Shown: positions 34,429 to 63,126, counted from the stretch's first letter. The stretch is DNA of 64,000 nt from Escherichia phage BAU.Micro_ELP-22 (OR699282.2); one strand, 5' to 3'. Notes: generated by a model not told the origin, from the sequence alone. Translations and numbers: made by a program.

Positions 34429-34538
34429 AATATTTCCCTTGTATGAGTTAATGTCATATACCAATATTTATCAGTACAAAATACATTTCGTTATCATTAA
34501 TAAATAAATGAAAGTTCACTACTAAAAGGGCTTAAACA

Positions 34539-42546: not shown

Positions 42547-45500
42547 TTACTTAACTAATAATATATTTTTAATATCATTACCACTAACTTGTAGACTATC
42601 AGTGTATACTGAAAGATCTATAGTGTAACTATTTTGTGTGTAACGTTTTAACATATCATAATTACCTAAATTAATTCCATTGAAAGAATATGTAGTATTA
42701 AGTTTAAAATCATGTTCTGCACTATACATTACACCACGGAGTAAATTATTTGCATTTCTAACTTCAACTTTTTCATATCCAATCGATATAATATCATTCA
42801 TGTTCGCGGCTGAACCGGATAAAACATTATTTCTAATACTATAAGGACTTATTGATTTAGGTTGAGAAACATAGGTTGTATTTTCTTCACTAATGGTTGT
42901 GATGTTAGTAACAGTACCCCCAACAACACCGATATACATACCGTCAACCATTGGGAATCCATAAACCCATATCCCTTCATTATTTCTAAACGGTTGAATA
43001 ACACTTGAATCATATTCGATAACGTTGATTTCTAAACTATCAGTCATTTTAGTTCTTGCCAATTCACTAAGAACTCCCGCACCCGTAATTGGTAAGTTAT
43101 AACCGTTATCGATAGTAATTCCATCAACATCAAATATTTCATTGGAGATTATCCAAACGTCAACGTCATCTGGTGTTATTCCGTCATTGTACTTACCACC
43201 ATTTAAAGTAGTATCGTAGAAAACATCATAATTAATTACATCAATGGTGTAATTTCTATTTTGTTCATACAATTTAATACCATTCTTGACAAATTCAGGG
43301 TCAGCAAATGTTCTAACACGAACAATGTTCAATGCTAGAGGCTGTACTGGCTCATTTTGTTGTGCAAGAGTGATGTTATCATAACGGAGAACTGCACCAG
43401 TACTCTCATCAATCAATTCAATCGTTTCCTTACCTGTATTTCTTACAGTGAATAGGATCGGAGTTGTATTGTTTTTGATGTTAGATACACGCAAGATTGT
43501 TTCCCATGTGTGATTTTGATATCTCACAAAATCTTCACCATCAGGAGTGAAAATCATCACCTTATCACCATCAGATAGGTCATTGTCAACTATTTCTGCT
43601 TCAGTTAAGCTATTAATAGATCTCACACGATAGAAATATTTTTCATCAAACTTCGATGTTGTTTTATTAATATCATTTTCAATCTTAGCATATGAAGGAA
43701 TACTTACAATTGCTTCTGTATGTTTATATGGATTGATAATTGCCATACCTTCAGTTTGATATCTGCTGTTATCACGTAATTGTACAAGAGATACATTGTC
43801 AAACCCATATCCATCAACTGTAAATCTAATTTGTCCAACATCACGCCCAGAAGGGTTTATGTCAGATATATCCACAATATAAGGATCAACTTCATCATCT
43901 TTAACTTCCCATTTTATTGAAGAAGTTTGAGATTCCAATGCTAGGTTATCAAATGCATTCATATCATTGAAGTACTTAGCTTCAGTAATACTATCAAGTA
44001 TATATTGATAATCAGAATACATTGGATTATTTTGATCTAGTGGTAAATCATCAAGATTTATTTCAGCTAGTTCAACCATTTCACCATTTGTGATAAAATA
44101 ATCTTCCATGAAATCATCAATACTTTGTTCATCAGGTATACTTTGATATACACCGTTAACATTTAAGTAAACATATTTTCGTGGAATCATTGTAATTGCA
44201 TAGATATCAATTGGGGTCTTACTAAGAATCTCTTCAGCTTTTTCGTACTTATCAGTAGCGTCTTTGTCGAATAACCCTCTCATACCTGCTAATACGTGAA
44301 TAGCATCAGTATAGAAACGGGTATCACCACCTACTTCATCATAACGATAAACATATACACCATACTCAACTTCAAGTTTAACTTTTACTTCATAGTCTGA
44401 TGCGTCAGGATTTTTATCTTTAATTAATGAAATGTATTTTTGATACAATTCACTGCTTATTTCAAAATATCCATAGTTATAATCATTACTAGAAGAAAAG
44501 CCTAATGGAAGTCTAGTACTAGGATTGTCATTATAAGTAAGTCCACTAAATCCACATCCAACTTCATCGTGAATTTTCTCATCACTTATATCTTTATAAA
44601 GTTTCAAACGGTTTGCCAATGTGTTATACTGAACATATTGTCTAAGGTCAGTAAACATATCGTTATGCGTTGATTCTTTATAAACACGTTCCAATGTAGC
44701 AGTGAATTCATCAGTTGCTTCTAAATCTTCCGCATGGTCTTTATACCACTGGTTAACGCCATATGCTGTTCCTAGTGTTACATCCAATTCTGGATAGTAG
44801 ATTTGCATTTGATAAGCAATAAGAAGATCGAAAGTTTCTTCACTATATTCTGGGAAAGAATATATATAACGTTGTAATTCATAGTTACTAACAGCATCCT
44901 TTTCATTGGATTGATATTTGTTATTAACACTTACTAATTCATTTATGCTTGCCAAATCTTCATTTGGTTTACACTGAATATTATCATAATGCATAATAAT
45001 ATCAATTTCTTGGAATCTTCTATTTGGTGTAACGAAATCACTTGGTAGTGAACCTACCTGTTCCCATTTTTGGGTAATTTCATTAAATTGAGCGTACTCA
45101 TAATCCCAAATATCTTTTTCAGTTTTGATCCAAGAACTGTCAACGAAAATATATCCATTAGGATCTAAATCATTACATAGACCTTTTATTAAATCATCAT
45201 CAGATGTCTTTTGCTCTATTTGTGAACGAATTTTAGTTCTATAAGGTTTAACTTCTTCAAAATATTCAACAATTTGATTAATCAAATTATCGTTTGAATA
45301 GTTTTGAACTAATGATTGTTCCAAACCAACAATATAGATATATGATGTTTTAAATACCCAATCCACAACACTTTGTTCAACATGTACATATTTGACCATA
45401 TCAAAAACAATTTCGCTTTGATGTAAATCGAAAGAATTTTTGAGTAAAGCTAGTGCTTTACGAACGTTGATTTCACGATTGCTTAGTGAACCATTATCAT

Positions 45501-48500
45501 TATGAACACTATAATCTGCGTAAAGCATATCATTGAGTTCAACTGTACTGTTTTCACGACCAATCGCTTTCCAATAAATTGAATCGCGTGATTGTGATTT
45601 AATATACAATGTCCAAATGTTTTCACTATCGGTAACTCTGATAATATCGCCAACTTGGTAGTTTTTAGTATTAGCATCTTCTAAGCTTGACTCTTGAGTA
45701 TAAGTCGTGTTACTATCATATCCAACATCATACCAATCAGCATATGACCAGTACTGAGTCATGTCTAATGAGGTTCCTAGTGATTCAACATAATCAGATT
45801 GTTTAATCATTTTATGTTGTCCCTCACCTTTGTTTTCTAACGTTATAGTAACAACACTACCCGCGTTTGCTGGACTATTCATTAACTGAATATATCCATT
45901 TTCGTCGAAGTGAATAAAATAAACAGCACTAGAAGTTAATGGATTTGGTAGATATCCACTAGTACTTAAAATAACAGCGTCATTTTCTTTAAATTTATCA
46001 CTTTCAACTGCAATAACTAATTCATTATTGTAAGACAACACACGGAAAGAAACTTCATTAGGGTTAACTTCAGTGGTTTTAACATTAAACACATCTTCCA
46101 TAACAACACTATTAGTGGTTATGTTTTGTGACCTATAATAATTATTAGCACTTTCTACAAAGTTTCTACGAGCTTCTATAACATTTTGGAACCAAGTTTT
46201 GTTTGATCCTAAACCGTTATCAACATCTGGATATAATAAATTAATCACAGAACCTGATTCAGTTGTTTCTTGACCAATTAGTGAGTTCCACATTGAATCC
46301 CAAATTAGTGGGTTAAAGTTATAGCTGTCACCTTCTTTACATAGTTGATACTGGTCATGTTTAACAACTTCAGTACTATCCATGTAATAAGAAACAGTTA
46401 AAATACTGGTATCATCATTCACTTTAAATTGCATATTACTAAGAATAAACGAGTTTTCATTTATTGGAGCGAACCAAGGAATGTTTAGCTGTGTTGGATC
46501 TTTAATAATACGAGCAATGTCAGTACATGATTTCGTTCTGGTATGTAGTGGTGGTACATAAATTGTATCACGTACCCAGAAATAGTATTTTGTCACATAA
46601 CTATCAGTTGAACTATCATATTCCAAAAATGTACTATAATTATCTTCAAGTGCAGTTCCACTTGGTAGATACATAGTATTATTTTTGTTTTTCTTAGCAA
46701 CATCTTTACAGTATTTGTCCCAGTTATATGGCTCAACTGGTGAACAAACCCACTCTAACACATCAATGGTACTATGTGGCAACAAACGGCCCCAGTTGTA
46801 ACGTTTGTATTCATTGGTTGCATCAATATCAACATTACCGTCTGCGTCATAAATTGCACGAGTATAATCCAAATAAAATGCAGTGCTAGTGTTCCACCAT
46901 ACTTGACCAACTTTATCAGCACCCCAAGCCTGGATTAACTCTCCATTACTATTATACTGTGCAGGATCAACTGGTGAAGTATATGTTACGTTTTGCATAG
47001 CCGCACCTGGAATAACACCATTAATTGGGTCATAAACATTTAGATATAGCTCAGTAATGTTAGTACGTTCATCATATGTCGTTGGACGATCAAATAAAGT
47101 ACTTTGTGGTGCTTTAAAACTATATTTCTTGTCAATGTAAGCTTGACGTTCATCAGTACTGGCAAAACGTGATACATAACGATACAAACGTGGACGTGTA
47201 TCTGGATCAGTAAATTCAATATCAATAGAAGTGTCAAATGGAACTACCATAACTTTAGGATCAGAACCAGCAGTATAATATTGACTTTCTACTGTTAAAG
47301 TATCTGGCATAAAGTTAGTTTCATCAACAAAATAATAATAATCACCATCTTCAAGTGGTACATTATCAGTTAAAGTTACTTTACAAAATTGTTCAGCATA
47401 CACATCGGTATTTTCAATAGGTGTTATAGAAACCATTTGCACATTAGTATCAACCAATTCAAAAATGTTCCACAAACCATTACCGTCTTTAAACATCCAC
47501 ACAGATTCAGGATTTTCACCTTTACCATTAGTATAAGTTATGCGGTCATTATATGCAGTACTGAAATCTTTTGTTGTGTACGATACTTCATCCAATGTTA
47601 CTGGACCAATATCTGGAAGTTGGATGTTTTCACTTCTTCCACTACGCATTGGGAATGAGAACTTACCATTTGGACGTGTAATCCAACGAGGATCTTTACC
47701 TTGCTCACCGAAGTATACAATATGATTACCATTACCATTTGAAGTTGCATTTACATCAAAAGAAACCATTTGAGGTTGTTGTTTAAATTGGTCATTGATT
47801 AGTTTAAATTGAAGGTTTTTCTTACCATCAATATTACCATATGTACCAATTTTAAATGCCCATTCTTGTAATGCTTTATATTCATCAGTGTCATATGATT
47901 TAGAAACACGAAGTACACGTTCTAAAACTTGGTTAGTACCTTTATCGTGAATGAATCCTTTATAGAAATCAACACGACTAACATCACTACTAATCATACG
48001 CTGTAGATAATCACGAGATTGATAACCAATCAAATGGTTTGACAACTCTTGTAATTGTACATCACTTACTGGAGTTTCACTATCATAATAATGTTGGAAA
48101 TCCGACACTAATTTTTCAAATGATGGTAGTGTTCCAGCTTCCAAGATAATAAATCCAGGAGCTTGTAGGCGACCAGTCCATGAACCAGTAATATATCCAT
48201 ACATTTTAATTAGTTCTTGAATAGAACCATATGTTGGCTGATAAATGTAATCACCAAAAATAGTTTTATCATCAAAAATAACAGCATGTTCATATGAACA
48301 CAAACTTAAACGAATCAATGCAATGCGTTTATTAGATTCTAAAGTTCTAACAGTGAAGATATTTCCAATACGAGAAGTTTCAATTTCATATTGGCGAATA
48401 CCTTGGTTATTATCATCAAGTAATGACCATACACCACCATTATTTTGCGTAATAGATTGTACTGAACCAAAGTCTGCCCCAAATTTAGCGTTTGCAGCAC

Positions 48501-51500
48501 TTGGGGTACAAGAAATAAATTCACCAGTTACTAGAGAATTCTGACTCCAGATCACGAAATCTTTAGCAATAGTGTTCCAATCTTGTTGAGCACCACTATC
48601 ATTTACATCTTCAAAAATCCAACCATGTTCTTTAAGATATTCACCATATCCACAAATAAAAGTATAAACTTCTTGGTAACTATTGAAAACTTTACCATAT
48701 TCAATTGAAGCTTCAGACTTCCATTCATTATAATGAACAACATTACGGTTTTCCAATTTAAGAGTTACTTTTCTACCATTTTTTACTGGAAGTTTATATT
48801 TAAATTTAGCACCAACTAGATCATATCCATCAATCTGATATGCACTACCATTCCAAGTAATTTTGATCGCACTCATTTGCTCATCACGGATATTATTAGA
48901 ACGAACAAGACCAATGGTTTGGTTTTCTTGTGAAATAAGACCGAAAGATTTAGCATTGAATGTTAGCTGATCTGCTTTAGTAAATCCTCCAATTTTATGA
49001 CCAACATTTATATAAGAAGAACGAACTACATCCCCATACTTGGTAGTAATATTTTTATTTTGATACATCAAATGGTCACTTACAAACATTTGATAACCAA
49101 TTGTTCTTGTGCTATTTTCACCATGAACTACTGTATTTTTATCAAAATTAATACGCTTACGTGTATCACCATAAAGGAATTGTGAACCATCAGTGAATAC
49201 TTCTTTTAAGTTATCGTTGCGGGTATCCCAGAAATAGTTAGCAAATTGTGCTGGTTTAGCTTTATACAAAAGCATCATTTGGTCATATGCAAACAATGTA
49301 GTGTTCATGTATGTAAATTCCATGTCACCCATATCACCATATGTCCAAGGTTCTGCTCTATGATTTAAAGATCCAGACACTAAACCTAAAATTTCAGGTG
49401 CAATATATTCAACCACACAAATATCAATACCAGAAGATGTTTTATTTCCAGTTTTTGTAATTTTGAATGGCTGTACACCAAATCTTTTATATTTGTCATA
49501 TTGACCACGACGATCACCAAATAAAATAGTTCCAGTACTGCTATCGCCAATAGTTCCGTCAATATCCCAAAGACCACTAGGAACTAAATCACCTTGCTCA
49601 TTCATAACAAGTGCTTCATATACATATACAACATCACTATCACGTTCACCAACTTGAACAGCCGTTGGTTCGTATTCTTGGTTCCACCAAGTTGGACGTT
49701 GTGTAAAGCCAAACATTTCCCACGGATGGGTAGCTGGGCGATATGTACCATATTGGTCAGTGTAAATGGCACGCCATGAACCACGTGCAGGAATTTCAGT
49801 ACTTTGACCATTAACTACATAATAAGTGCCAGTATAGTTCCAAGTTCTCCAATTGTTAGGATCATAATCATGTGTACTATTACTGATACCATTAGTTGCG
49901 GTGAAGTTAATGTATCCACGTAGTAATAATGTTTGTTTCTCTTCAGCACTATATTCAGTTTTAGTGAAATATGGTGTAGGGAAAAGGTCATCACTATTCA
50001 ATACTGGTACGTAATCAACATCTTTGAATTTATTATCAATACTATTAAAAATTCTATTTTCTAATTCATATACAACATCATCCATTTTATCAACACCATT
50101 GATAACACGGTATGCTTTGGAAATAATACCAGTATGACTGATGTTATAACAGCTTGGTTTACTACCAGCAGTGAGGAATGTCGCTTTTTCTGGTACATAT
50201 GCTTGAAGAATACCTAAGAACTGTGGTGTTGGTGGTATAAATGCACGAATGAATCCAGAAGTACTTCCAACATTATCATAATAGAATGGGAATGAACTAT
50301 CACGTCCCATATTAATAGTAGTTAAAATTGCATCAACAATGTTTGCAGCACTATTTTGTAAAAAGTCTGATGGATTTTCATCATACATACGAAGCATTTG
50401 TGTATTAAATTTATTAATGAATCTAAAATATTCAGATTGCATAAACATAGTTGCTTCAAACAAATCAATATCTTCATTTGCAGTATGTGCCATCAATGGA
50501 AGCATAGATGCTTCATTTTGGATAATTTTAGTACCTACGCCATTATTAACCAATCCTTTAGCCAAACGTTCTTCATAGTCATTGAAATCATCAGAAGAAC
50601 CACGTGTAATGTTCTTTTGAATAATATCCTGAAAATGTAAAGTGTAGTCACCTTGGTTAATGTATATAATATTAGAATTATATGGGTTATTTTGTAGGTT
50701 GATTGGAACTTCATATGCACCTAATTCTTTATTAGGAGTTACAGTACTGCTATAAGTTCTAATTTGAATAACAGAATCTTCATCCAATTCTACAGTACTA
50801 TCTAGAGTGATGCTTTGTACTTGACCTTTTGAAACATTTTTGGTATATTTGGACACATCAACACCATCAACCACAACTTCAATAATATCAGAATCATTAT
50901 CTAAAACTTTTTGTGCCAATTCGAATGTATGGTCATATTTTACAATCTGAACACCATCACCAGTAATTGGATGCCAATCTAGATAAGTTTCACGGTCAGC
51001 TTTATAGTACTGATATGTTCTATCAACTTCAATAACATATGCATACATACCATCAACTGGTTCTTTAAAAACTTCCATATCATAAACAGTACTGAATACA
51101 CGATACATATCAGTACGTTGGACTTGTGGAGTTTGTTTTACAAATTGTTTAGAGTACTCTTCTGAACGAACCCAATCGGTTTGAAGATTCATTTCATTAT
51201 TTTCATCAATAATGTTATAATAGTATAAACCATCAATTTCAACTTCTTTTCCAAGATGGTCATAGGTATAACGTTGGGATTGTAAAAAGTTTTCATAAAT
51301 GTAATAATTATAATCACCAAGTTCAATGTTATATCCATATACACTATCAGTTGCATAGTTGTAATTTATTTTAAAACCAAACAACTCTGAACCTTTAAAG
51401 TTACTTGATGGATATGTAGTACTGTTGTCAAGTTTGATACCATTACGATCATAAAGTTGGAATTTAGGGAATACGTTAACACTAGTTTTTGATTGTGCAC

Positions 51501-52548
51501 GAACCCACAAAGATCCATTCCAGTACATAGAACTATTACCATACTCATTACCTTTAGTGATTAGAACAACATCACCATCTTGAGGTTCACCACTTGGGCG
51601 TGATTCGGTTTCTTCTTCTGGATCTAGTGCTAAACCATAAACACGAGTACCATCTTGCATTTTTTTCACATATACATTATAAATTCTATTGTTTTCACCA
51701 TTGTTACCAATACTGGTGAATAGAATACGCATTCCATCTTGCGGAATAATACCATCAATACGTATACCACTATTAATATCTTTTTGAACGATATCTTCAG
51801 GTTTAATAATATCAGAGAACAGATCAACAGTTCCACGGAATTTTGTACCGTAGTTAATTAGCTCAATATTTTTATTATATTCAATAATTGGTGCACGTGC
51901 ACGAATAAAACGTGAATCTTGCATTAATTCTTCAGTTAATATTGAGCCATCTTCTAATGTTTCACCTAAAGTATACCAAAAGTTTTGTAGTGACCATGTA
52001 TTACCATTAAGTGCTCCACGTTCCATTACAATGTAATCAGGTGAAGTAATATTATAAGAGTTTTTAGTATCCCAAAGATATGAGCTAAAATTGTTCATTT
52101 TATTTGGGTTAATAGCTGGAGTCCATGCATAAAACTTACCGTTGAACAAACGGCTTTCATTATCGGTTAGTGCTCCATAATGATTCATGTATCCAACTAG
52201 ATCATCATAAAATTGAATTGAACGAATTGTCGAATCATCATTTTTTGAGACGTAAGCAGTGGACAACTGATAAAGTTGACGTGCTACAGTACTTTCATGT
52301 AAGAAGATATTACCAGCAGCGGCAGGAGAACCCATATCACCAATATAGCCGTCAACTAATTCGTTTTCAGCCGGATTAAACCATTGTTGAATAACATCAT
52401 CACTGACTTTTTGAATATCTTCTAAGCCTTGCATCCACTCAGGCAATCTTTTAATAAAAAGCTTCTTCTGTACTGCTTCAGCCATCTGTGTAGGTTGAAA
52501 CTTAAAATTATTAGTCATTTTTGGACTCCATATAATTCGTTCATTCAT
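42547..52548 (-). CDS. giant protein (3333 aa), probable baseplate or tail component
   Basis: Uninterrupted 10 kb frame directly downstream of the baseplate-J-like gene; alternative ATG at 52518 has a GGAG SD. Confidence 0.65.
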   Translation of the reverse strand: MNERIIWSPKMTNNFKFQPTQMAEAVQKKLFIKRLPEWMQGLEDIQKVSDDVIQQWFNPAENELVDGYIGDMGSPAAAGNIFLHESTVARQLYQLSTAYVSKNDDSTIRSIQFYDDLVGYMNHYGALTDNESRLFNGKFYAWTPAINPNKMNNFSSYLWDTKNSYNITSPDYIVMERGALNGNTWSLQNFWYTLGETLEDGSILTEELMQDSRFIRARAPIIEYNKNIELINYGTKFRGTVDLFSDIIKPEDIVQKDINSGIRIDGIIPQDGMRILFTSIGNNGENNRIYNVYVKKMQDGTRVYGLALDPEEETESRPSGEPQDGDVVLITKGNEYGNSSMYWNGSLWVRAQSKTSVNVFPKFQLYDRNGIKLDNSTTYPSSNFKGSELFGFKINYNYATDSVYGYNIELGDYNYYIYENFLQSQRYTYDHLGKEVEIDGLYYYNIIDENNEMNLQTDWVRSEEYSKQFVKQTPQVQRTDMYRVFSTVYDMEVFKEPVDGMYAYVIEVDRTYQYYKADRETYLDWHPITGDGVQIVKYDHTFELAQKVLDNDSDIIEVVVDGVDVSKYTKNVSKGQVQSITLDSTVELDEDSVIQIRTYSSTVTPNKELGAYEVPINLQNNPYNSNIIYINQGDYTLHFQDIIQKNITRGSSDDFNDYEERLAKGLVNNGVGTKIIQNEASMLPLMAHTANEDIDLFEATMFMQSEYFRFINKFNTQMLRMYDENPSDFLQNSAANIVDAILTTINMGRDSSFPFYYDNVGSTSGFIRAFIPPTPQFLGILQAYVPEKATFLTAGSKPSCYNISHTGIISKAYRVINGVDKMDDVVYELENRIFNSIDNKFKDVDYVPVLNSDDLFPTPYFTKTEYSAEEKQTLLLRGYINFTATNGISNSTHDYDPNNWRTWNYTGTYYVVNGQSTEIPARGSWRAIYTDQYGTYRPATHPWEMFGFTQRPTWWNQEYEPTAVQVGERDSDVVYVYEALVMNEQGDLVPSGLWDIDGTIGDSSTGTILFGDRRGQYDKYKRFGVQPFKITKTGNKTSSGIDICVVEYIAPEILGLVSGSLNHRAEPWTYGDMGDMEFTYMNTTLFAYDQMMLLYKAKPAQFANYFWDTRNDNLKEVFTDGSQFLYGDTRKRINFDKNTVVHGENSTRTIGYQMFVSDHLMYQNKNITTKYGDVVRSSYINVGHKIGGFTKADQLTFNAKSFGLISQENQTIGLVRSNNIRDEQMSAIKITWNGSAYQIDGYDLVGAKFKYKLPVKNGRKVTLKLENRNVVHYNEWKSEASIEYGKVFNSYQEVYTFICGYGEYLKEHGWIFEDVNDSGAQQDWNTIAKDFVIWSQNSLVTGEFISCTPSAANAKFGADFGSVQSITQNNGGVWSLLDDNNQGIRQYEIETSRIGNIFTVRTLESNKRIALIRLSLCSYEHAVIFDDKTIFGDYIYQPTYGSIQELIKMYGYITGSWTGRLQAPGFIILEAGTLPSFEKLVSDFQHYYDSETPVSDVQLQELSNHLIGYQSRDYLQRMISSDVSRVDFYKGFIHDKGTNQVLERVLRVSKSYDTDEYKALQEWAFKIGTYGNIDGKKNLQFKLINDQFKQQPQMVSFDVNATSNGNGNHIVYFGEQGKDPRWITRPNGKFSFPMRSGRSENIQLPDIGPVTLDEVSYTTKDFSTAYNDRITYTNGKGENPESVWMFKDGNGLWNIFELVDTNVQMVSITPIENTDVYAEQFCKVTLTDNVPLEDGDYYYFVDETNFMPDTLTVESQYYTAGSDPKVMVVPFDTSIDIEFTDPDTRPRLYRYVSRFASTDERQAYIDKKYSFKAPQSTLFDRPTTYDERTNITELYLNVYDPINGVIPGAAMQNVTYTSPVDPAQYNSNGELIQAWGADKVGQVWWNTSTAFYLDYTRAIYDADGNVDIDATNEYKRYNWGRLLPHSTIDVLEWVCSPVEPYNWDKYCKDVAKKNKNNTMYLPSGTALEDNYSTFLEYDSSTDSYVTKYYFWVRDTIYVPPLHTRTKSCTDIARIIKDPTQLNIPWFAPINENSFILSNMQFKVNDDTSILTVSYYMDSTEVVKHDQYQLCKEGDSYNFNPLIWDSMWNSLIGQETTESGSVINLLYPDVDNGLGSNKTWFQNVIEARRNFVESANNYYRSQNITTNSVVMEDVFNVKTTEVNPNEVSFRVLSYNNELVIAVESDKFKENDAVILSTSGYLPNPLTSSAVYFIHFDENGYIQLMNSPANAGSVVTITLENKGEGQHKMIKQSDYVESLGTSLDMTQYWSYADWYDVGYDSNTTYTQESSLEDANTKNYQVGDIIRVTDSENIWTLYIKSQSRDSIYWKAIGRENSTVELNDMLYADYSVHNDNGSLSNREINVRKALALLKNSFDLHQSEIVFDMVKYVHVEQSVVDWVFKTSYIYIVGLEQSLVQNYSNDNLINQIVEYFEEVKPYRTKIRSQIEQKTSDDDLIKGLCNDLDPNGYIFVDSSWIKTEKDIWDYEYAQFNEITQKWEQVGSLPSDFVTPNRRFQEIDIIMHYDNIQCKPNEDLASINELVSVNNKYQSNEKDAVSNYELQRYIYSFPEYSEETFDLLIAYQMQIYYPELDVTLGTAYGVNQWYKDHAEDLEATDEFTATLERVYKESTHNDMFTDLRQYVQYNTLANRLKLYKDISDEKIHDEVGCGFSGLTYNDNPSTRLPLGFSSSNDYNYGYFEISSELYQKYISLIKDKNPDASDYEVKVKLEVEYGVYVYRYDEVGGDTRFYTDAIHVLAGMRGLFDKDATDKYEKAEEILSKTPIDIYAITMIPRKYVYLNVNGVYQSIPDEQSIDDFMEDYFITNGEMVELAEINLDDLPLDQNNPMYSDYQYILDSITEAKYFNDMNAFDNLALESQTSSIKWEVKDDEVDPYIVDISDINPSGRDVGQIRFTVDGYGFDNVSLVQLRDNSRYQTEGMAIINPYKHTEAIVSIPSYAKIENDINKTTSKFDEKYFYRVRSINSLTEAEIVDNDLSDGDKVMIFTPDGEDFVRYQNHTWETILRVSNIKNNTTPILFTVRNTGKETIELIDESTGAVLRYDNITLAQQNEPVQPLALNIVRVRTFADPEFVKNGIKLYEQNRNYTIDVINYDVFYDTTLNGGKYNDGITPDDVDVWIISNEIFDVDGITIDNGYNLPITGAGVLSELARTKMTDSLEINVIEYDSSVIQPFRNNEGIWVYGFPMVDGMYIGVVGGTVTNITTISEENTTYVSQPKSISPYSIRNNVLSGSAANMNDIISIGYEKVEVRNANNLLRGVMYSAEHDFKLNTTYSFNGINLGNYDMLKRYTQNSYTIDLSVYTDSLQVSGNDIKNILLVK

Positions 52549-52563
52549 TTGATTTATTTATGA

Positions 52564-52590
52564 TATAAAAAAGGCGTTCCGAAGAACGCC
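52564..52590 (-). terminator. rho-independent terminator with UUCG tetraloop (minus strand)
   Basis: GGCGTTC-cgaa-GAACGCC; T-tract on the minus strand; lies between the J-like gene and the giant ORF. Confidence 0.55.
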
Positions 52591-52597
52591 CGTTATA

Positions 52598-55500: not shown

Positions 55501-56059
55501 ATAGTTGACGGGAGACACCATTAACATCAATACGCTTGACTGGATTACCAAATTGGTTAGTACTGACAAATGAACTGTTCATTACTAGAATGAAGTTTTC
55601 ATACCAGTTAGCATCCATCGGGTCATTCCAACGAATGATTTTATCTTTTAATGATTCATTAAAACTATTACGAACATCTTGGTTTGTTTTAATTTCGGTT
55701 AATTTAGCAACTGCACGACCTGGATATGAGCGGCGTGGTGAGTAAGAAATCATTTTAGCTAGTTTTAGTACTGATGCACGACGAGTTGCAGTATCTAAAA
55801 AGTTTTCACGTGTGTTCAAATCCATACGAAATGCCAAGTTCTGCCCTAGCATAGAAATCGTATCTAAAATAAAAATAAACTGGTCGTTTTCGATCCAGTC
55901 GTTGAATGAGTCTGGGTAAGTTGCACGTAGATAATCAATCATACTCTGACGGATAGTATCGAAGTCATAAGCTGTAAGATTGATTTTATAAAAACTTTCA
56001 TATACTTGAGTCCAATCCTCACCAGCGTATAAATTTGATTGCCTTTTTTGTTGTGACAT
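52598..56059 (-). CDS. baseplate wedge protein, baseplate-J-like
   Basis: N-terminal pattern YDFDTIRQSMIDYLRATYPD...RENFLDTATRRASVLKLAK resembles baseplate-J family N-termini; synteny with a gp25-like gene. Confidence 0.55.
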   Translation of the reverse strand: MSQQKRQSNLYAGEDWTQVYESFYKINLTAYDFDTIRQSMIDYLRATYPDSFNDWIENDQFIFILDTISMLGQNLAFRMDLNTRENFLDTATRRASVLKLAKMISYSPRRSYPGRAVAKLTEIKTNQDVRNSFNESLKDKIIRWNDPMDANWYENFILVMNSSFVSTNQFGNPVKRIDVNGVSRQLYRMNTIPMTAPSIPFIATVNGESMTFEVVNPDITSVGVEERHPEPQEQKYIVYQNDGNGFSSPNTGFFVYFVQGTLTYQDYQYAIREENRIQDINVDNINETDVWVQEINEDGIVRTKWTKVPSMESIAYNTVNRQLKTIFAVTTRDKDQITIKYPDSRSGVVPRGTFRVWYRVSNGKTYNIKTSEIQNKSVKYTYRTKTQSSYESSTLDIRFSLQYESDRAQSAETIEQIKARAPQMYYTQNRFVNGEDYNIAPLSLGNTVLKSKAINRIYSGQSRFIDINDPTGKYQNTDVFSDDGALYQENTQFNRSLLLPTTKTNASIVIDNIQPLIGENAVIQRYQAFPSNTIGIEIQQAWTPVYNSNYTTNTYGRILGSSGTVYGSYQVGTLIKFSNSGTTIWASVVSVLDNGFYVLSTSVPSGMQAIEYILPYRTRFNSVEVQAISAMLDKKTDFVIVHDKETTSWVPIEVSTNDDTIVYNGNEVLIIINVKYTAETWEFDANGIEYIFVGGEKVRFYFVSSKKITDISTGTVQSDKIEILSSNTTSSSNSGLTSNIDFQIYDTIQQENGYLDGSRVIVTSRKVDSNGIPLEPNQFKEIVPTWTGTDALKYGGILVFQENSDFTISVLSLPNDTFTLLDSSWSYTMEQALAEPNAYKRTEFVRNNAIRSTTLSGLYSKGSGFLVGFNYDGKYYFIEQTVGNNNDRLGQLISNLTYSDDTGTVSPELAFYRAINNMGTNADENQKLDYYGYKDVTSQYTVKTNARTSIDFHWKHYAPDDNRIDPSRTNLIDMYVLTNSYKTEVDVWLKNNAVGSIPKPPTSVELKDMFKDVEQKIVISDSIIWHSAEYLPLFGNSAAEDYKADFKVVKLPNSTMSDDEIRQNVIALTNEYFNVDNWDFGESFYYTDLCTYIHSQLGRHISTIVIVAQNPNSKFGSLFEIPSRSDQIFLSTASVENVQIVNSLAKSNINIGS

Positions 56060-56123
56060 AATTTATTCCTTTAAATCAGTAAAGTACTAGTTCAGTACTG
56101 GGAATTATATATAGAAATATTTA

Positions 56124-56156
56124 TTCAAAAAGAAAAGCACTCCGAAGAGTGCTTTT
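56124..56156 (-). terminator. rho-independent terminator with UUCG tetraloop (minus strand)
   Basis: GCACTC-cgaa-GAGTGC with flanking A/T runs. Confidence 0.55.
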
Positions 56157-56160
56157 GTAA

Positions 56161-56556
56161 TTATAAAGACGATACTGAATATGTTGCCATTCTGTTATTA
56201 CTTCTTGCATCGAATACAATAGTAAGTTCTTCTAATGTATCCAATACTACGTACTGTAATACAATATTCATTTGGTATCCATATTCTATTCTTGAAATTT
56301 GCAATTTCTTAAGATTTAAGCGTGGATCTAAGCTAATTATTCTACGGGCATCTGCTTCCAAAAGGTTGATAGTATTATAACCTTCCAATTCAAACAGCAA
56401 ATCCCATGCAATAAAACCATAGTCAGCATCAAATGCTCTTTCGCCTTTTTTTGTATTGAAATGATTCATTAAATCTTGGCGAACCAATTCACTATCATAC
56501 AATGTTTCAGTTCTACCCACTACTGGGGTAGAAAAACCTTTAAAAACAACTGCCAT
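56161..56556 (-). CDS. baseplate wedge protein, gp25-like
   Basis: 131 aa; KGERAFDADYGFIAWDLLFE block of the kind found in gp25-family proteins, by recollection only; AAGGAAA SD. Confidence 0.55.
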   Translation of the reverse strand: MAVVFKGFSTPVVGRTETLYDSELVRQDLMNHFNTKKGERAFDADYGFIAWDLLFELEGYNTINLLEADARRIISLDPRLNLKKLQISRIEYGYQMNIVLQYVVLDTLEELTIVFDARSNNRMATYSVSSL

Positions 56557-56571
56557 TGACTATTTCCTTTA

Positions 56572-57060
56572 TTATACGGATTCAACAATACGTGCCATCT
56601 TTTCCGCTCTTGAAGTGGTTTGTTTATACCATGTACTATCACGCAATTCCTTACCAGCAGTTTTATAATCAGCCTTACCTAATGCGGTCATTGCTTTTTT
56701 AAATTTTAAAACTTTGGTTTTGCCCATCTGGAATACCATCAACCATAATACACGTTGAACCTGTACAGGTGCGGTCATACCAAATTGTTCATAAATTGAT
56801 TTTGCATCATTGTACGCAGTTTGAGCATCTTTAAGAAGAAGTTGGTCAGCTTGTGCTTCTGTTAAACCATTCTTGAAATTTTCACCAGGTAAAACTAGGT
56901 GACCATAGCCAATAGTATCAAGACCTAAGCTGTCTTTATATACCCAAAACTTATCATTTTTAAAATAACCAAGTTTTTTCTGATAAGCAATAGTTCCTTC
57001 AAATTCTTTAATTTCCTTAAAAAATTGCTCATCTGTATTTTTAATTTCCCATTTACTCAT
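56572..57060 (-). CDS. GH24 (T4-lysozyme-type) lysozyme
   Basis: EFEG...YKDSLGLDTIGYGH...LWLMVFQMGKTKVLKF...STWYKQTTSRAEKM matches T4 lysozyme blocks, with catalytic Glu/Asp/Thr positions conserved. Confidence 0.85.
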   Translation of the reverse strand: MSKWEIKNTDEQFFKEIKEFEGTIAYQKKLGYFKNDKFWVYKDSLGLDTIGYGHLVLPGENFKNGLTEAQADQLLLKDAQTAYNDAKSIYEQFGMTAPVQVQRVLWLMVFQMGKTKVLKFKKAMTALGKADYKTAGKELRDSTWYKQTTSRAEKMARIVESV

Positions 57061-57076
57061 AAAGATATCCTCGTTT

Positions 57077-57084
57077 TATTTATA
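57077..57084 (-). promoter_or_regulatory. T4-type late promoter box TATAAATA (minus strand)
   Basis: Exact TATAAATA 16 nt upstream of the lysozyme ATG, followed by GAGGA SD. Confidence 0.5.
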
Positions 57085-57096
57085 GTACTAAAATAT

Positions 57097-59760
57097 TTAT
57101 TGACATGCCTCTAAACGACGAGCCATTAACTCAGCACGGCGAGTAGTTTGGCGATACCAAGCTGAATTACGTATTTGAGCAGCAGCTTGTTTATAATTAC
57201 CTTTAGCTAATTCAGACAACATAGTTTTAAATTTAAGTACCCCACCTTTACCCATCTGGAATACCATTTGGCATAGTACTTGTTGAGCCAAATAAGGTGT
57301 TTTCATGTTGTATGAAGCATAAATTGATTTAGCATCATATATAGCTTTACTACTATCACGAACTAACATATCGTTGGCTTGCTGTTCAGTTATTCCATCT
57401 GAAAAGTTTTCACCACTAATAATTAAGTGACCATAACCAATAGTTGGATACCCACGACTATCCAAATAACGCCAGAATTTACCATTACGATAATATCCTT
57501 TTGCTTGTTGGTATTGTAATGTACCTTCATATTCTTTTAATTCAGAAATAAATTGTGCATCACCTGGAACAACTTTCCAATCGATTGCAGTTTTATCAAC
57601 ATTTCCAATATTATAGGTAGGTTGCTCCACCGGAGTTGTTGAAGCTCCACTTCTCTGTGTTCTTCTCCTACGAGGCACATGACGAGAACCACGTTGAGAA
57701 TATCCAGTACCTATCGTTTTGATTTTTGTTGTAACTACCAATTCATCACTATCAACTGAAGGTTGTACAACTGCTTTTGGAGCAGATTGATTAGTTGCTT
57801 GACCACCAATTAATGTTTTATTCGCCGCATCAGACCCTGTTCCTGTTTGTGAAGCATAAAATAATCCTGGGTCAACAGAACCACTGAATCCAAGAACATT
57901 TGCTGATGTAACACGAATTTCAAACTGTATGACACCATTTGCTTTTCCAACAACTTGACCTTTTTGAACAACATCTTTGTTTAATAAATCAGATTGAATA
58001 TTATAAAAAATAGATTTATATCCAGACTTATGTTGTATTAAAAGAGCACCATTAGTAATTACTACCACACCACCATCTGGTGCAACTACATCACCTTTAC
58101 ATTGTATTTCCCAACCTGAACGGTCTGCCTTTCCTCCACTTTGTGTTGGAACACCTTTCCCCCAGTAACCATATTGTCGAATAGTGCCGCTACATGGCAT
58201 TAACATATGTAAACCTTCATATGTAATACTATATCCAGTCATCCCAGGATCAGATGTCATCAAATCTTGTGATTGAACTTGTTCAGTTTCTGATGTATAG
58301 TTAACAAACTGAACAGCTTCAGTGTCTTGTGCTACGGGTAATTCTGGTGATACATCATTTGCTGGTTGTGGTTGTACTGGTGATTCACTAGAACCACTTC
58401 CACCACCTTGTCTTGGTGGTTCAACATAACTACCATGATTTTCAGCGTTAACCCATGCAGCAATATCATGAATGTGTTCATTAAGACCAGCAGATGGTGT
58501 TCTAAAGTTTGGTGCAGTAAATTCAGCAGTACCGCTATTACCACCACTATTAACTGTTAATGTTTGACCACCACCACTAATAATTGCTGATGATGATCCA
58601 ATTAGGTTTGCAGATGTTGCGGCAGAAATAGAAGCATTTGAACCAGCCGTAATATCAGTACTGCTACCACTTTGCATACGTAATGATGCAGCAGTAACTA
58701 AACGAAGGTCTGCCCCAGAATTAACAACAACTTGTCCACCAACTTTTGCATCAAGAGCACCAATTAGATCTAATTTAGTATTTGCACCAACTCGTGCATT
58801 GAAATCTTGTCCGGTTTCAATATTATATGAACGTCCAGCAGTAATATTAATATCTTGACCAGCACGAATATTAATATTCTTATCACAGTGCATGTCAATA
58901 TCACCTTCACCAGTGAATTTTATACGTGCAGTTCCATCACGGTTAATTAAAAGAACATCACCAGTAGCTTCTGATAAAAGAAGTTGTGCACCACTACGTG
59001 TTTTTATTACGACACCTTCATTTTTACGAGAACCAACACGTGTATCGTTTACTGGGTTATTAAATTGTGTATCTTGATATCCATCTGGGTCTTGATCCCA
59101 CGTTGGTGCTGTTAATTCCTCTTCAGTATATCCATCATCAATAATAAAACTATTACCACGTGGCGAAGACATACCATATACAGTACTGGTGGTTTGTCGA
59201 GTACTACTACGATTCGCCAACCCAGCTTCTTCGTCATATAAAAGGTTTTGCTTTTTAAGACCTGCGATAATTGGAACGTTAGCATATTTGTCTTGCATAT
59301 CGGTAGTGATAGTGTTACGATCATAGTCAGTAACAGGAAGTGGCATATCAGTTCCACCATAATTACTTACTTCAGTTGCCATACCTGGAACCATAGTATT
59401 CATACGCTGGTCATATACACAACCAATCCAATATGCTTGGAATGTACGGGCTTGTGCAAAAATTACAACAACTGTACACCCTACGTCTGGTGGTACTGCC
59501 CAAAAACCGTATCCTTTTGGATATTGACCATATGCATCAGCACTTGGAATACCTGGTGTTTTACCAGCAAAAGGAGACATGTAAGATGCTTCTATCCATG
59601 ATTCTTTTGAGTTTTTATCACTTTGAGAACCTTGTATCCAAACTTTCAGTTTTCCTGATTTAGTTGGATCTCTGTTATCCATAACAGTTGCTAACTGCGG
59701 ATAAGATGGGTCAAAACGACCCAACTGCTGTTGTGCATACTTTTTACTTGTATCTGCCAT
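57097..59760 (-). CDS. baseplate central spike protein with C-terminal GH24 lysozyme domain
   Basis: Central NINIRAGQDINITAGRSYNIETGQDFNARVGANTKLDL-type beta-helical repeats; M23/LytM-like region lacking obvious HxxxD and HxH; C-terminal YEGT...YLDSRGYPTIGYGH...CQMVFQMGKGGVLKF...SAWYRQTTRRAELM. Confidence 0.75.
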   Translation of the reverse strand: MADTSKKYAQQQLGRFDPSYPQLATVMDNRDPTKSGKLKVWIQGSQSDKNSKESWIEASYMSPFAGKTPGIPSADAYGQYPKGYGFWAVPPDVGCTVVVIFAQARTFQAYWIGCVYDQRMNTMVPGMATEVSNYGGTDMPLPVTDYDRNTITTDMQDKYANVPIIAGLKKQNLLYDEEAGLANRSSTRQTTSTVYGMSSPRGNSFIIDDGYTEEELTAPTWDQDPDGYQDTQFNNPVNDTRVGSRKNEGVVIKTRSGAQLLLSEATGDVLLINRDGTARIKFTGEGDIDMHCDKNINIRAGQDINITAGRSYNIETGQDFNARVGANTKLDLIGALDAKVGGQVVVNSGADLRLVTAASLRMQSGSSTDITAGSNASISAATSANLIGSSSAIISGGGQTLTVNSGGNSGTAEFTAPNFRTPSAGLNEHIHDIAAWVNAENHGSYVEPPRQGGGSGSSESPVQPQPANDVSPELPVAQDTEAVQFVNYTSETEQVQSQDLMTSDPGMTGYSITYEGLHMLMPCSGTIRQYGYWGKGVPTQSGGKADRSGWEIQCKGDVVAPDGGVVVITNGALLIQHKSGYKSIFYNIQSDLLNKDVVQKGQVVGKANGVIQFEIRVTSANVLGFSGSVDPGLFYASQTGTGSDAANKTLIGGQATNQSAPKAVVQPSVDSDELVVTTKIKTIGTGYSQRGSRHVPRRRRTQRSGASTTPVEQPTYNIGNVDKTAIDWKVVPGDAQFISELKEYEGTLQYQQAKGYYRNGKFWRYLDSRGYPTIGYGHLIISGENFSDGITEQQANDMLVRDSSKAIYDAKSIYASYNMKTPYLAQQVLCQMVFQMGKGGVLKFKTMLSELAKGNYKQAAAQIRNSAWYRQTTRRAELMARRLEACQ

Positions 59761-59773
59761 AATATTTTATTCC

Positions 59774-62023
59774 TTAATCAACTATACTATCGTGACGTTT
59801 GAGTGCACGAATTACAATTGCAGCTTGAATTTGTTGTGTAAAAGAACCACCTGCACCAAAATCATGAACAATTTTATTAACACGATAAATTGTTTGGTTA
59901 AATGTGGTTGGTGTATTAATATCCAAAACACCAGTGTTATCATTTATTGATATTACTGGTTGTAATTTTAGTAATAGATACGCTTCAGATGTTATATAAT
60001 TTGCTACATGATAATCATCTGGGTTAATTTCCATATCTTCACCATTAATTACTTGTTCTAGATATTGTAAGTAAGAGTAATCACTCCACCCTAACCAGTA
60101 CGGGTCACCTACTACACGCATATCGAGTTTACACAAAAAAGGTCTATTGTAATAGTTGTCACGTATTTTACGTCTATCCATTTCATATGTGCTGCTGTTA
60201 TCGTTTAACGAAGCGGATAAAGTTGTTTCATTGTTAGTTGCTTCGGTTGGCATTGTGAACACTTCACCATAACGGTGACCAACACCATCAGTGCCACCAT
60301 CGTTTTCTTCATAAGTGGTTACATAATCTTCAATATATTGAGGTAAAACATTGACTTGATAGTTATTATAACGGTCTTGTTCTTCTGCGTTACCAACCTG
60401 CATTTGATTTTTTGCTAAAGTTTCAACTTCAGTTAACAATTGTTGTTGGGCTTGTGTTAACATCCCTCCTAAATCACGAGTTACACGTAAATCACTTGTT
60501 TTTGCCCATGCGTCTGGTATACTATTGTATTGTACACCTTGAATATTGAGTTCTTGGGATGTATGTGTACCTGCATGGTTCGCTACATCTTGTATCGGAC
60601 CAGGGTTACGTGTAGTGGCTACGAAAAATTGCTGATCAAATTTCAAATCCAAATCAAGTATCTCACTATTAAGCCCACTAAATTGATAATTATAAGTTTT
60701 CATGTTTATTTTTGGTTTTTGATCATTAGGATCTACGTATTTTTCTGCGTTCTCAAAAAAGTACTCAAATGTGAAATTTTCAGGTTGTAAATCCGATTCA
60801 TGAACAATATCACCTATTTTAAATCTAACAATATAAAAAATTACTTTATAAACAGAAGTATTACGATAATTATCAAAACCAACGTATTGTTTAACTGGTA
60901 TAATGTTTACAAATTGACGCACACTAGTACTATCATCGGCTTGTACAGTACATGTATCAATAACGTCATCAATAATTCGAGATATAGGAGTACTTGGGTT
61001 CCATGAAAAGTTTTTAGAACCTTGTGCACCACTTTTAGTTGTTCCGGCCTCTGCCATTTGTTTAGAATCATAGTTTATAAACAAATCTTGCAAATCAGGT
61101 GCTACTTTAAATTCGAAAAATTTACCTTCGGATAATTCACCAAATTTATATCTAAGATAACCATATTGTTGGTCAGCCATCTGATTTAATTTATCTTCTA
61201 AATCAAAGCAGAAGTCACCAAAGTTTTCAGCAGTACAATTGAATGGTTCTTTTAAGGTCCATTCAATGTTATCAACTAAAGCTGCTCTATTATGAACTAA
61301 GTTCATAGTATACATCATAGTACTACCACTTTGTGAAGCACTTGCAGTAACACTATTAATTTTAACTGACCAGCGTCTTGTTGTTTCTGGGATAATTTCA
61401 GGTATTCCATTTTTATTAAAGCCAATAAACTTTAATTCCAAGATCAATGGCAAGTCCATAAATTTATGATATCTAAGTTTGTTACTTAACGAAATTAATT
61501 CATCATATAGACTCATACTATTATTTTCAGACATATTAAGTACTGCTGTATTAAAACAATAGTTTGTTGTCATTCCTGGTGTTGAAGGTCCAGCTTGTGT
61601 CATTTGTACACTAGTGATATTATATTTGCCAGTAACACCACTTTCTGATATCACATGTCGTTGCACTTCTGCATCTGGGTAAAGCCAAAAGTTTTTAAAA
61701 TCATCTTTATCTAAGGCAAATAAACAAAAGTGCCAAGTTGGGTTATCATATTTCAATAATTTATTGTCATACGGTATTACAAACTGACTTAAATCGAGAT
61801 CTTCATAAACTTGATCAACACTAGCACTTTGTTTTGGTAATGATACTACATTACTTACATTTGCTTTGTAATTATTTTTTGTAATAGTTTTTACATCATT
61901 TTGTAATGTATTTGCTGTAGCTTTCAAACTATCAAGTGCATTAGATGTGGTGGTTTTAGCCTTACCAGTAATACTTGTAATATCATTTTGAAAATTATCA
62001 ACTGTACTTCGTAAATCTGCCAT
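59774..62023 (-). CDS. hypothetical baseplate protein (possibly hub-associated)
   Basis: 749 aa directly upstream of the spike gene; ATG with GGAG SD; position only. Confidence 0.4.
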   Translation of the reverse strand: MADLRSTVDNFQNDITSITGKAKTTTSNALDSLKATANTLQNDVKTITKNNYKANVSNVVSLPKQSASVDQVYEDLDLSQFVIPYDNKLLKYDNPTWHFCLFALDKDDFKNFWLYPDAEVQRHVISESGVTGKYNITSVQMTQAGPSTPGMTTNYCFNTAVLNMSENNSMSLYDELISLSNKLRYHKFMDLPLILELKFIGFNKNGIPEIIPETTRRWSVKINSVTASASQSGSTMMYTMNLVHNRAALVDNIEWTLKEPFNCTAENFGDFCFDLEDKLNQMADQQYGYLRYKFGELSEGKFFEFKVAPDLQDLFINYDSKQMAEAGTTKSGAQGSKNFSWNPSTPISRIIDDVIDTCTVQADDSTSVRQFVNIIPVKQYVGFDNYRNTSVYKVIFYIVRFKIGDIVHESDLQPENFTFEYFFENAEKYVDPNDQKPKINMKTYNYQFSGLNSEILDLDLKFDQQFFVATTRNPGPIQDVANHAGTHTSQELNIQGVQYNSIPDAWAKTSDLRVTRDLGGMLTQAQQQLLTEVETLAKNQMQVGNAEEQDRYNNYQVNVLPQYIEDYVTTYEENDGGTDGVGHRYGEVFTMPTEATNNETTLSASLNDNSSTYEMDRRKIRDNYYNRPFLCKLDMRVVGDPYWLGWSDYSYLQYLEQVINGEDMEINPDDYHVANYITSEAYLLLKLQPVISINDNTGVLDINTPTTFNQTIYRVNKIVHDFGAGGSFTQQIQAAIVIRALKRHDSIVD

Positions 62024-62034
62024 ACGTTACTCCA

Positions 62035-62349
62035 TTAGCCTATGTTTCGAGTACCATTAAGATAATTCTGTACTCTTTGATTTGCTGGTATTCTAATTGT
62101 TACTCCACTTTTAAAATTATATATAGGATCTTCTCCTAGTATGTCTGGATTTAACAATGCGAAAATATAATATAAGCGTTCATTACCATACATTTCGTAT
62201 GCTAAACGCCAAGGTTGATATTCATATTTCAATGGGATCTCATAAAAATCATCAGTATCAGCCGGAACAATATCACGTGGTAAATTATACCCAAGATACC
62301 ATGTTTGTTTCACCTTAGCGTAAGGTGAGTATTGACTATAGTTGGACAT
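62035..62349 (-). CDS. hypothetical protein
   Basis: Start overlaps the upstream stop (TAATG). Confidence 0.4.
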   Translation of the reverse strand: MSNYSQYSPYAKVKQTWYLGYNLPRDIVPADTDDFYEIPLKYEYQPWRLAYEMYGNERLYYIFALLNPDILGEDPIYNFKSGVTIRIPANQRVQNYLNGTRNIG

Positions 62350-63080
62350 TAAATGAATCCTCCTTTACGTAATAGTTCACCACGTTTGAATGCATTGAGG
62401 TTGAACGTTTTAGTCATATAATCCGATGTTGGTTGTTCTTCAAGTTGTAACATAACTGAGATTTTTTGTGGAACCCAAACTTCATCTTGTGGGTTCATAT
62501 ATCCAGTACTTCTAAGTTGTTCGAAGAATTTTCTACTATCCATGTCGGATAAATTAAAAGTACTATCGCTACTATTCAACGGAACTTGAATATAAGAAAC
62601 ATCATTTGGGTAAGTAAAATTATAAGATTTTAAAATAACAGGAATATCATTATATGTATAACGACCATATCCACTTAGAAGTAAGATTGGTGGTGGTGCA
62701 CCTGCAATTGCGAGTTCGGGGTTATTAGCCGAAGCAGCTTGTCTACCAAAATCCATCAACGAAACAGAACGTATAAAATGAACACATGCCAACGCATACA
62801 TAGCTTCTGCTGCGGTATTCGCATAAAATTCACCCTGAATCGTGAAAACTGTATTAGTAGTGTTCTTATAGTTGTTATAGTTACTGTTAGTATGTATAGG
62901 GGACTGTGTTTCATACTGAATTGACCTTTGTTCAGTAATTGTTGGTGTTACAGTCCAAACCAACCCATTAGTTGGACGCAGAAACGAAAGTAGAGTTGGT
63001 TCGGAGCTATCTCCAAAATCACCATATACATAGTTAGCACCTGCGGCTTTAGGTCGTAATCGAATTCTACGATCAATCAT
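62349..63080 (-). CDS. hypothetical protein
   Basis: ORF-track start 63170 is TTG; first ATG with GGAGAA SD at 63080. Confidence 0.4.
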   Translation of the reverse strand: MIDRRIRLRPKAAGANYVYGDFGDSSEPTLLSFLRPTNGLVWTVTPTITEQRSIQYETQSPIHTNSNYNNYKNTTNTVFTIQGEFYANTAAEAMYALACVHFIRSVSLMDFGRQAASANNPELAIAGAPPPILLLSGYGRYTYNDIPVILKSYNFTYPNDVSYIQVPLNSSDSTFNLSDMDSRKFFEQLRSTGYMNPQDEVWVPQKISVMLQLEEQPTSDYMTKTFNLNAFKRGELLRKGGFI

Positions 63081-63126
63081 CTTTTTGATTCTCCATAATA
63101 AGGGAACATTTGATGTATTTATACGT

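Follow-up and report, generated by a model that had tools for sequence, protein, structure and literature searches.

A stand-alone GH24 lysozyme beside the central spike gene of an Asteriusvirus: paralogy, late-type promoter boxes and a possible endolysin role

The 162-aa protein encoded next to the central spike gene in the 64,000-nt stretch of Escherichia phage BAU.Micro_ELP-22 DNA (OR699282.2) analysed here (the window) is a soluble, catalytically competent GH24 muramidase without export signal, whose activity is known from its orthologue LysUE1; with moderate confidence, we regard it as a soluble, late-expressed endolysin. The first-pass annotation of this DNA had proposed either the endolysin or a second baseplate-associated lysozyme, and the evidence leans towards the former, a soluble lysin that is not part of the virion. 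The gene, its similarity to the spike and the late-promoter motif had all been published before, and the finding is real but ordinary: three lysozymes and the resemblance between the free and the spike-borne enzyme were described for RaK2 in 2013 (PMC3622015), the gene trio and the late motif for CBB in 2017 (PMC5259590), and the orthologous enzyme LysUE1 was characterised in 2025 (PMC12805682). The additions made here are modest and consist of a corrected count of the late box, a conserved box embedded in a stop codon, the age of the duplication and a contrast between the promoters of the soluble and the membrane-anchored lysozyme; the finding as a whole matters little beyond annotation hygiene. 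Identifying the GH24 paralogue, out of three, that is responsible for host lysis in RaK2-like jumbo phages would clarify how lysis proceeds without a recognisable holin, and studies of enzybiotics such as that of LysUE1 would learn which enzyme is the natural endolysin. Two features may guide transcript mapping, namely the stop-codon box conserved across genera and the apparent position of the membrane-anchored paralogue outside the ATAAATA regulon.

By megablast, window positions 56000-60000 are 100% identical to Escherichia phage vB_EcoM_E9.1, 99-100% identical to PBECO4, phAPEC6, Sharanji and others, and 95.7% identical to 121Q. Because of the matches to E9.1, PBECO4, phAPEC6 and 121Q, the window can be assigned on nucleotide identity to an Asteriusvirus, within the RaK2/121Q-like group of jumbo myoviruses. 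Positions in the E9.1 record are converted to window positions by subtracting 122890. The features discussed below are collected in Table 1.

Table 1. Positions of the lysozyme genes, their baseplate neighbours and the associated expression signals (window coordinates unless another record is named)
Feature	Position	Strand	Basis or remark
Terminator-like intrinsic hairpin with T-run	56133-56156	-	10-pair stem, then CTTTTT
gp25-like baseplate gene, 131 aa	56161-56556	-	Pfam PF04965 (GPW_gp25)
Stand-alone GH24 (T4-type) lysozyme gene, 162 aa, ATG start	56572-57060	-	ORF, Pfam PF00959
Shine-Dalgarno sequence GAGGA	57068-57072	-	7 nt before lysozyme ATG; read from sequence
Proximal late-type box, exact TATAAATA	57077-57084	-	16 nt before lysozyme ATG
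Distal late-type box, ATAAATA	57094-57100	-	33 nt before lysozyme ATG
Central spike gene, 887 aa	57097-59760	-	Pfam PF04717, PF10106, PF00959; PHROG 13211
Spike C-terminal GH24 domain, residues 728-887	57100-57579	-	Paralogous to stand-alone lysozyme
Second exact TATAAATA	63116-63123	-	35 nt upstream of structural gene 62349-63080
Third GH24 paralogue (121Q gp532 / CBB_187)	E9.1 record 119041-119967; 121Q L003 14192-15118		~3 kb left of window

A T4-type lysozyme gene does lie immediately downstream of the spike gene, as first annotated: the ORF starts 36 nt beyond it, and its product matches PF00959 (Phage_lysozyme) with 37 bits against a cut-off of 22.3 (E = 5e-9). Sequence matches in the PDB are the lysozyme domain of T4 gp5 and T4 lysozyme (T4L), and residues E21, D43 and T49 align to the catalytic E11, D20 and T26 of T4L. 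In an alignment that took in orthologues, spike domains, the third paralogue, the lysozyme of Pantoea phage vB_PagS_AAS21 and T4 lysozyme, E21 and D43 are invariant and T49 is kept in 14 of the 15 sequences, T4L included. An AF2 model built on a two-sequence alignment has a mean pLDDT of 69, with the N-terminal lobe below 50; searched with Foldseek, this shallow-alignment model returns T4 lysozyme for all top matches (TM ~0.62). The GH24 fold accounts for the whole 162 aa and leaves no additional baseplate-docking domain; a fusion to an OB fold or a β-helix is absent from this GH24-only protein and present in its 887-aa neighbour. A hydropathy scan of the window genes detected no signal, transmembrane (TM) or SAR segment in the lysozyme, the N-terminus of which, MSKWEIKNTDEQ, is polar. 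Its Shine-Dalgarno sequence is retained across Asteriusvirus species, as GAGGA or, in ph0011, as AAGGA.

Orthologues 59-100% identical to the window protein were found in every RaK2-like genus examined, among them LysUE1, 121Q gp586, CBB_239, RaK2 gp073 and Muenster gp312. LysUE1, from the Asteriusvirus UE-S1, is a 162-aa GH24 enzyme encoded at the same locus and differs by a few percent in sequence; its published cloning primers map to both ends of the window ORF, exactly at 57040-57060 and with 2 mismatches at 56572-56592. Turbidity and CFU assays showed lysis of EDTA-treated E. coli by the purified enzyme (PMC12805682). That study treats LysUE1 as a therapeutic and leaves aside what it does during the infection cycle (PMC12805682).

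Paralogy between the free lysozyme and the C-terminal domain of the spike, also proposed in the first annotation, is borne out by direct pairwise comparison, in which the two proteins share 53% identity over 158 ungapped residues (spike 728-885; BLASTP, E = 3e-57) and the motifs quoted earlier are present. The spike consists of a gp5-type OB fold, a VgrG-like β-helix (DUF2345), a middle region and the C-terminal GH24 domain, of which PF00959 covers residues 765-882. The kinship itself was reported in 2013 for RaK2, with a stated similarity of 66% between ORF073 and ORF078 (PMC3622015), and in 2017 for CBB (PMC5259590). A neighbour-joining tree unites the six stand-alone proteins in one clade with 95% bootstrap support, whose internal branching follows the same pattern as that of the spike domains and the phages; the duplication is therefore older than the split of these genera and, as read from the tree, ancient. 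Both outgroups of the tree are non-spike proteins, one being the free-standing AAS21 endolysin and the other the TM-LysM-GH24 paralogue, which makes the earlier suggestion that the spike captured a free lysozyme domain a plausible direction of transfer.

The central spike drew two further observations. Its middle region (residues 487-727; window 57580-58302, minus strand), described in the literature as M23-peptidase-like, looks LytM-like by eye in the series GDVVAPDGGVVVI...LIQHKSGYKSIFYNI...GVIQFEIRV, with IQF in place of the usual HxH motif; Pfam searches for an M23 domain in the spike gave zero matches even at E = 10, PDB sequence searches also gave zero, and a single-sequence AF2 model was unusable (pLDDT 33). 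The middle region may be a degenerate, non-catalytic LytM domain. Separately, the tail sheath ORF at 3017-5680 (plus strand) encodes 887 aa, the same length as the spike; it was considered as a spike paralogue and rejected, since the two have zero sequence similarity and the equal length is a coincidence.

The arrangement invites comparison with T4, which has the same pair of paralogous GH24 lysozymes, one free (gene e) and one fused to the spike (gp5); the catalytic Glu/Asp/Thr and a late-promoter logic relying on a gp55-type sigma factor are common to both phages. The two phages also differ: identity between T4L and the window lysozyme is only ~28%, the latter carries an insertion of ~12 residues after the catalytic Glu and lacks T4L residues ~35-50, the lysozyme domain of T4 gp5 sits mid-protein before the β-helix whereas here it is C-terminal and follows the helix, and gene e is far from gene 5 in T4 while the free lysozyme and spike genes are adjacent here. 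The closest relative outside the RaK2-like group is gp136 of the T5-like siphovirus AAS21, with 44% full-length identity that includes the N-terminal extension; it differs in belonging to a true lysis cassette, where its gene and the end of a T-type holin gene (PF11031, E = 7e-80) overlap.

Values of dN/dS between 0.01 and 0.07, with dS up to ~1, were obtained alike for the stand-alone gene, the spike domain and gp25. Because of these values, the stand-alone lysozyme and the spike domain are both taken to be under strong purifying selection and both functional. A decaying, functionless remnant of the duplication would fit the presence of two further GH24 domains in this genome, with which the gene is redundant; this explanation, to which we attach next to no probability, is effectively refuted by the selection and activity data, as the catalytic residues are intact, dN/dS is low, orthologues persist in every RaK2-like genus examined and a purified orthologue is active (PMC12805682).

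Late expression is suggested by two boxes that precede the lysozyme gene, the significance of which rests on position, strand and conservation and not on count. The first-pass annotation had reported an exact T4 late box before the gene as the only one in the window; the box stands, whereas its uniqueness does not, as a second copy lies ahead of the baseplate operon (Table 1). Two copies of the exact octamer TATAAATA compare with 10.4 expected from shuffles, which is not above chance, and the heptamer ATAAATA, with 14 copies against 38.3 +/- 5.7 expected, is depleted by ~4 SD. Twelve of these 14 copies fall on the sense strand no more than 70 nt ahead of a gene start, against none on the antisense strand; shuffled upstream regions contained a mean of 2.4 copies and reached 12 in 0 of 2000 shuffles. 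The spacing from box to ATG for these 12 boxes has a median of ~35 nt (range 16-58). Because the base preceding the heptamer is mostly A or G, the late consensus of this phage can be written from the window as nATAAATA; avoidance of the heptamer outside gene 5' regions looks like selection against spurious late promoters. An ATAAATA late motif has been described for CBB and GAP32 too (PMC5259590). A gp55-like sigma gene starts at 63213 and matches PHROG 12791 and PHROG 234 ('late sigma transcription factor', E = 8e-18), and homologues of the co-activator gp33 and the sliding clamp gp45 are reported missing from CBB and this group (PMC5259590). We found no Asteriusvirus transcriptome in the literature. 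Elsewhere in the window, one 110-nt divergent intergenic region holds two back-to-back ATAAATA boxes (34465-34471, minus strand, and 34500-34506, plus strand), each with a structural gene starting 32-36 nt away on the same strand as the box.

The proximal of the two lysozyme boxes has the shortest spacing in the window, while the spacing of the distal box is near the window median; the latter overlaps the spike stop codon TAA (57097-57099). Both are invariant in 121Q, ph0011, vB_Ec-M-J and JNE01, in which the spacer and leader vary by substitutions and indels and the dS of the adjoining genes is 0.25-1.0 (Asteriusvirus comparison). The distal box is also found in the spike stop codon of Salmonella PHA46, Erwinia Kaldavass, Serratia BF and Yersinia fHe-Yen9-04, 26-31 nt before the ATG, and these four phages lack the proximal box at the corresponding position; the exact proximal TATAAATA is specific to Asteriusvirus among the RaK2-like phages examined. 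In Klebsiella phage Muenster, where the spike is no longer adjacent, TATAAATA stands 32 nt before the displaced lysozyme ATG, and the box has therefore travelled with the gene. The distal box is thus kept across five other genera and the exact proximal octamer within Asteriusvirus only. Our conclusion is that the distal box represents the predicted promoter of the ancestor, with the exact T4-type box a second one peculiar to the genus; both probably work as promoters, with transcript starts predicted ~6 nt beyond each box, at ~57071 (proximal) and ~57088 (distal).

A gap of 15 nt separates the lysozyme stop codon from the gp25-like gene, and the terminator-like hairpin that closes this two-gene unit has its counterpart in an annotated terminator at the equivalent place in Muenster. 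The unit of promoter, lysozyme, gp25 and terminator is intact in 6 of the 6 genera examined, and the order spike, lysozyme, gp25, gp6-like is conserved, the lysozyme gene keeping its place in the baseplate cluster, between the spike and gp25-like genes, in the other five. CBB_239, RaK2 gp073, 121Q gp586 and Muenster gp312 are the same gene, with the spike upstream and gp25 downstream; the Klebsiella RaK2-like phages (Muenster, RaK2 and K64-1) differ in having 2-4 opposite-strand hypothetical ORFs and a terminator between spike and lysozyme. These are two ORFs and a terminator in Muenster (locus L004 2442-3884), where the pairing of lysozyme with gp25 holds even though the inserted genes part the lysozyme from the spike.

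No terminator separates spike and lysozyme in the window. The baseplate operon opens downstream of the box at 63116-63123, which occupies the divergent region beside the gp55-like sigma gene, and a strong hairpin with a T-run also follows the gp6-like gene (52572-52591, minus strand). Because the spike-lysozyme junction is free of a terminator and hairpins follow the gp25-like and gp6-like genes, the lysozyme would be made both by read-through from the 63116 promoter and, together with gp25, from one or two internal nATAAATA promoters; these would be read by the phage gp55-like sigma factor, and the lysozyme-gp25 transcript would end at the 56133-56156 hairpin. Two terminator-then-promoter junctions on the minus strand, one at 52555-52591 before the 3333-aa gene and the other at 56118-56156 before the 1153-aa gp6-like gene, each consist of a GC-rich hairpin with a T-run and, no more than ~10 nt further on, an ATAAATA box. 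The baseplate cluster is thus divided into late units, each with a promoter of its own.

With regard to location, presence in the virion, together with a separate canonical lysis cassette, had been named in advance as an argument against an endolysin role, and neither the CBB nor the phAPEC6 study records the lysozyme in virions (PMC5259590, PMC7247149). Proteomics of the phAPEC6 virion detected the spike gp241, the gp6-like gp244 and the 382-kDa gp245, homologue of the 3333-aa protein, and did not detect gp242 (lysozyme) or gp243 (gp25-like) (PMC7247149); the CBB paper counts three neighbouring proteins with lysozyme domains, of which the gp25 and spike homologues alone are confirmed as structural in RaK2-like phages (PMC5259590). 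Mass spectrometry had limited sensitivity for small proteins, and failure to detect one that is present in few copies carries little weight; some virion studies likewise overlooked the gp25-like protein and even the spike of RaK2 (PMC7247149, PMC3622015). A virion-detected lysozyme of phage PA5oct, gp173, was considered as an orthologue and rejected (BLASTP E = 0.005 over 41 aa, other GH24 subtype), and it is therefore uninformative on virion association of the 162-aa protein. No cryo-EM study of a RaK2-like baseplate was found in the literature.

These data bear on a rather unlikely reading, namely that the stand-alone enzyme belongs to the virion or baseplate in low copy number, or is an assembly factor made along with gp25, and helps the spike to degrade peptidoglycan at infection instead of serving in lysis. 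The gene has stayed linked to gp25 in the baseplate module in every genus examined, a point against an endolysin, and such constant linkage could reflect a structural or assembly role; the conserved order from spike to gp6-like gene, the tight coupling to gp25 even in Muenster and the readiness with which mass spectrometry overlooks small low-copy baseplate proteins all agree with it. Against this stand the absence of the protein from the phAPEC6 virion and from the confirmed structural proteins of the CBB review, the lack of any docking domain beyond the GH24 fold, the GH24 domain that the spike already possesses and the fact that the closest relative outside the RaK2-like group is a cassette endolysin.

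The remaining lysis genes are dispersed. Separate ones do exist (spanins ~70 kb off and the TM-LysM-GH24 gene to the left of the window), but they are scattered and do not form a canonical cassette. The spanins, 121Q gp511/512 (supplement of PMC6139136), show no genetic linkage to the stand-alone lysozyme. T4 lysis genes are also scattered, and linkage to holin or spanins is therefore not obligatory for an endolysin. The hydropathy scan found no membrane protein in the baseplate operon and no holin-like gene in the structural region of the window; a tblastn search with the AAS21 T-holin against ~130 kb of the genome and an overlapping 68 kb of 121Q gave zero matches. The RaK2 paper agrees, with no T-holin in that phage (PMC3622015). 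The Muenster genome announcement is silent on lysis genes, and a literature search found no genetic data on the requirements for lysis in any RaK2-like phage. Upstream of gp510 and gp511/512, at ~4775-4865 of 121Q locus L003, a perfect sigma-70 consensus (TTGACA-17-TATAAT) is directly followed by a hairpin with a T-run.

The third GH24 paralogue, 121Q gp532, combines an N-terminal hydrophobic (TM) segment with a LysM and a GH24 domain and is conserved across genera in ~70 RaK2-like genomes; its CBB counterpart, CBB_187, is toxic when induced and has been proposed as the endolysin (PMC5259590). An alternative that we hold to be unlikely, though the most credible of the rivals, makes this membrane-anchored, signal-anchor-release-like LysM-GH24 protein the main endolysin and reduces the stand-alone lysozyme to an auxiliary or back-up muramidase, whose access to the wall would depend on prior breaching of the membrane and which would do no more than accelerate lysis. 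The domain layout of gp532, its conservation across RaK2-like genera, the toxicity of CBB_187 and the fact that no large-hole holin is known in these phages fit such a division of labour. However, the ATAAATA motif was not found upstream of gp532 or of the spanin genes, whereas the stand-alone gene appears to belong to the late regulon; the region upstream of gp532 looks sigma-70-like by eye, with the -35/-10 pair TTGTAA(16)TATACT, and the match to the homologue in Yersinia fHe-Yen9-03 carries annotated -35/-10 signals. Judged by the ATAAATA motif, the membrane-anchored paralogue would thus lie outside the late regulon. Purifying selection on the stand-alone gene is, moreover, as strong as on its neighbours, unlike what a dispensable back-up would show.

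A soluble, late-expressed endolysin remains our preferred reading. For it speak the AAS21 relative, which sits directly behind a T-type holin, the annotation of the Muenster orthologue as an endolysin by phage-lysis specialists, the virion data and the low dN/dS; the lack of an identified holin, the distance to the spanins and the proposal of the third paralogue as endolysin speak against it. Established here or by others are the fold family and catalytic residues, the paralogy, the orthologue's enzymatic activity, where the promoter motif occurs and is conserved, and the limits of the operon, whereas for the stand-alone lysozyme we infer late timing, transcript starts, an endolysin role and holin dependence: after late transcription, the enzyme would accumulate in the cytoplasm, probably without being built into the virion, and would act as a holin-dependent endolysin at the end of infection, in the way that T4 divides the work between gene e and the gp5 lysozyme domain. 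We also entertain, as an improbable outcome, that the protein is either a partner of the gp25-like protein, produced in step with it from the conserved unit and perhaps a transient or loosely bound baseplate lysozyme missed by conventional proteomics, or one half of a two-lysozyme lysis in which a sigma-70-expressed membrane-anchored LysM-GH24 and a soluble late GH24 enzyme work together and no canonical holin is needed.

Downstream of the lysozyme-gp25 pair, two features of the baseplate cluster were recorded. 121Q and JNE01 carry an additional ORF of 765 bp that parts the gp25-like from the gp6-like gene; that of 121Q (gp584; L012 1670-1886; JNE01 L014 1668-1886) is annotated 'protein associated with group I intron'. 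The ORF is probably a mobile insertion, because the window, ph0011 and vB_Ec-M-J lack it. Directly downstream of the gp6-like gene, a single ORF of 3333 aa (~382 kDa; 42547-52548, minus strand) may encode a giant gp7-like baseplate component.
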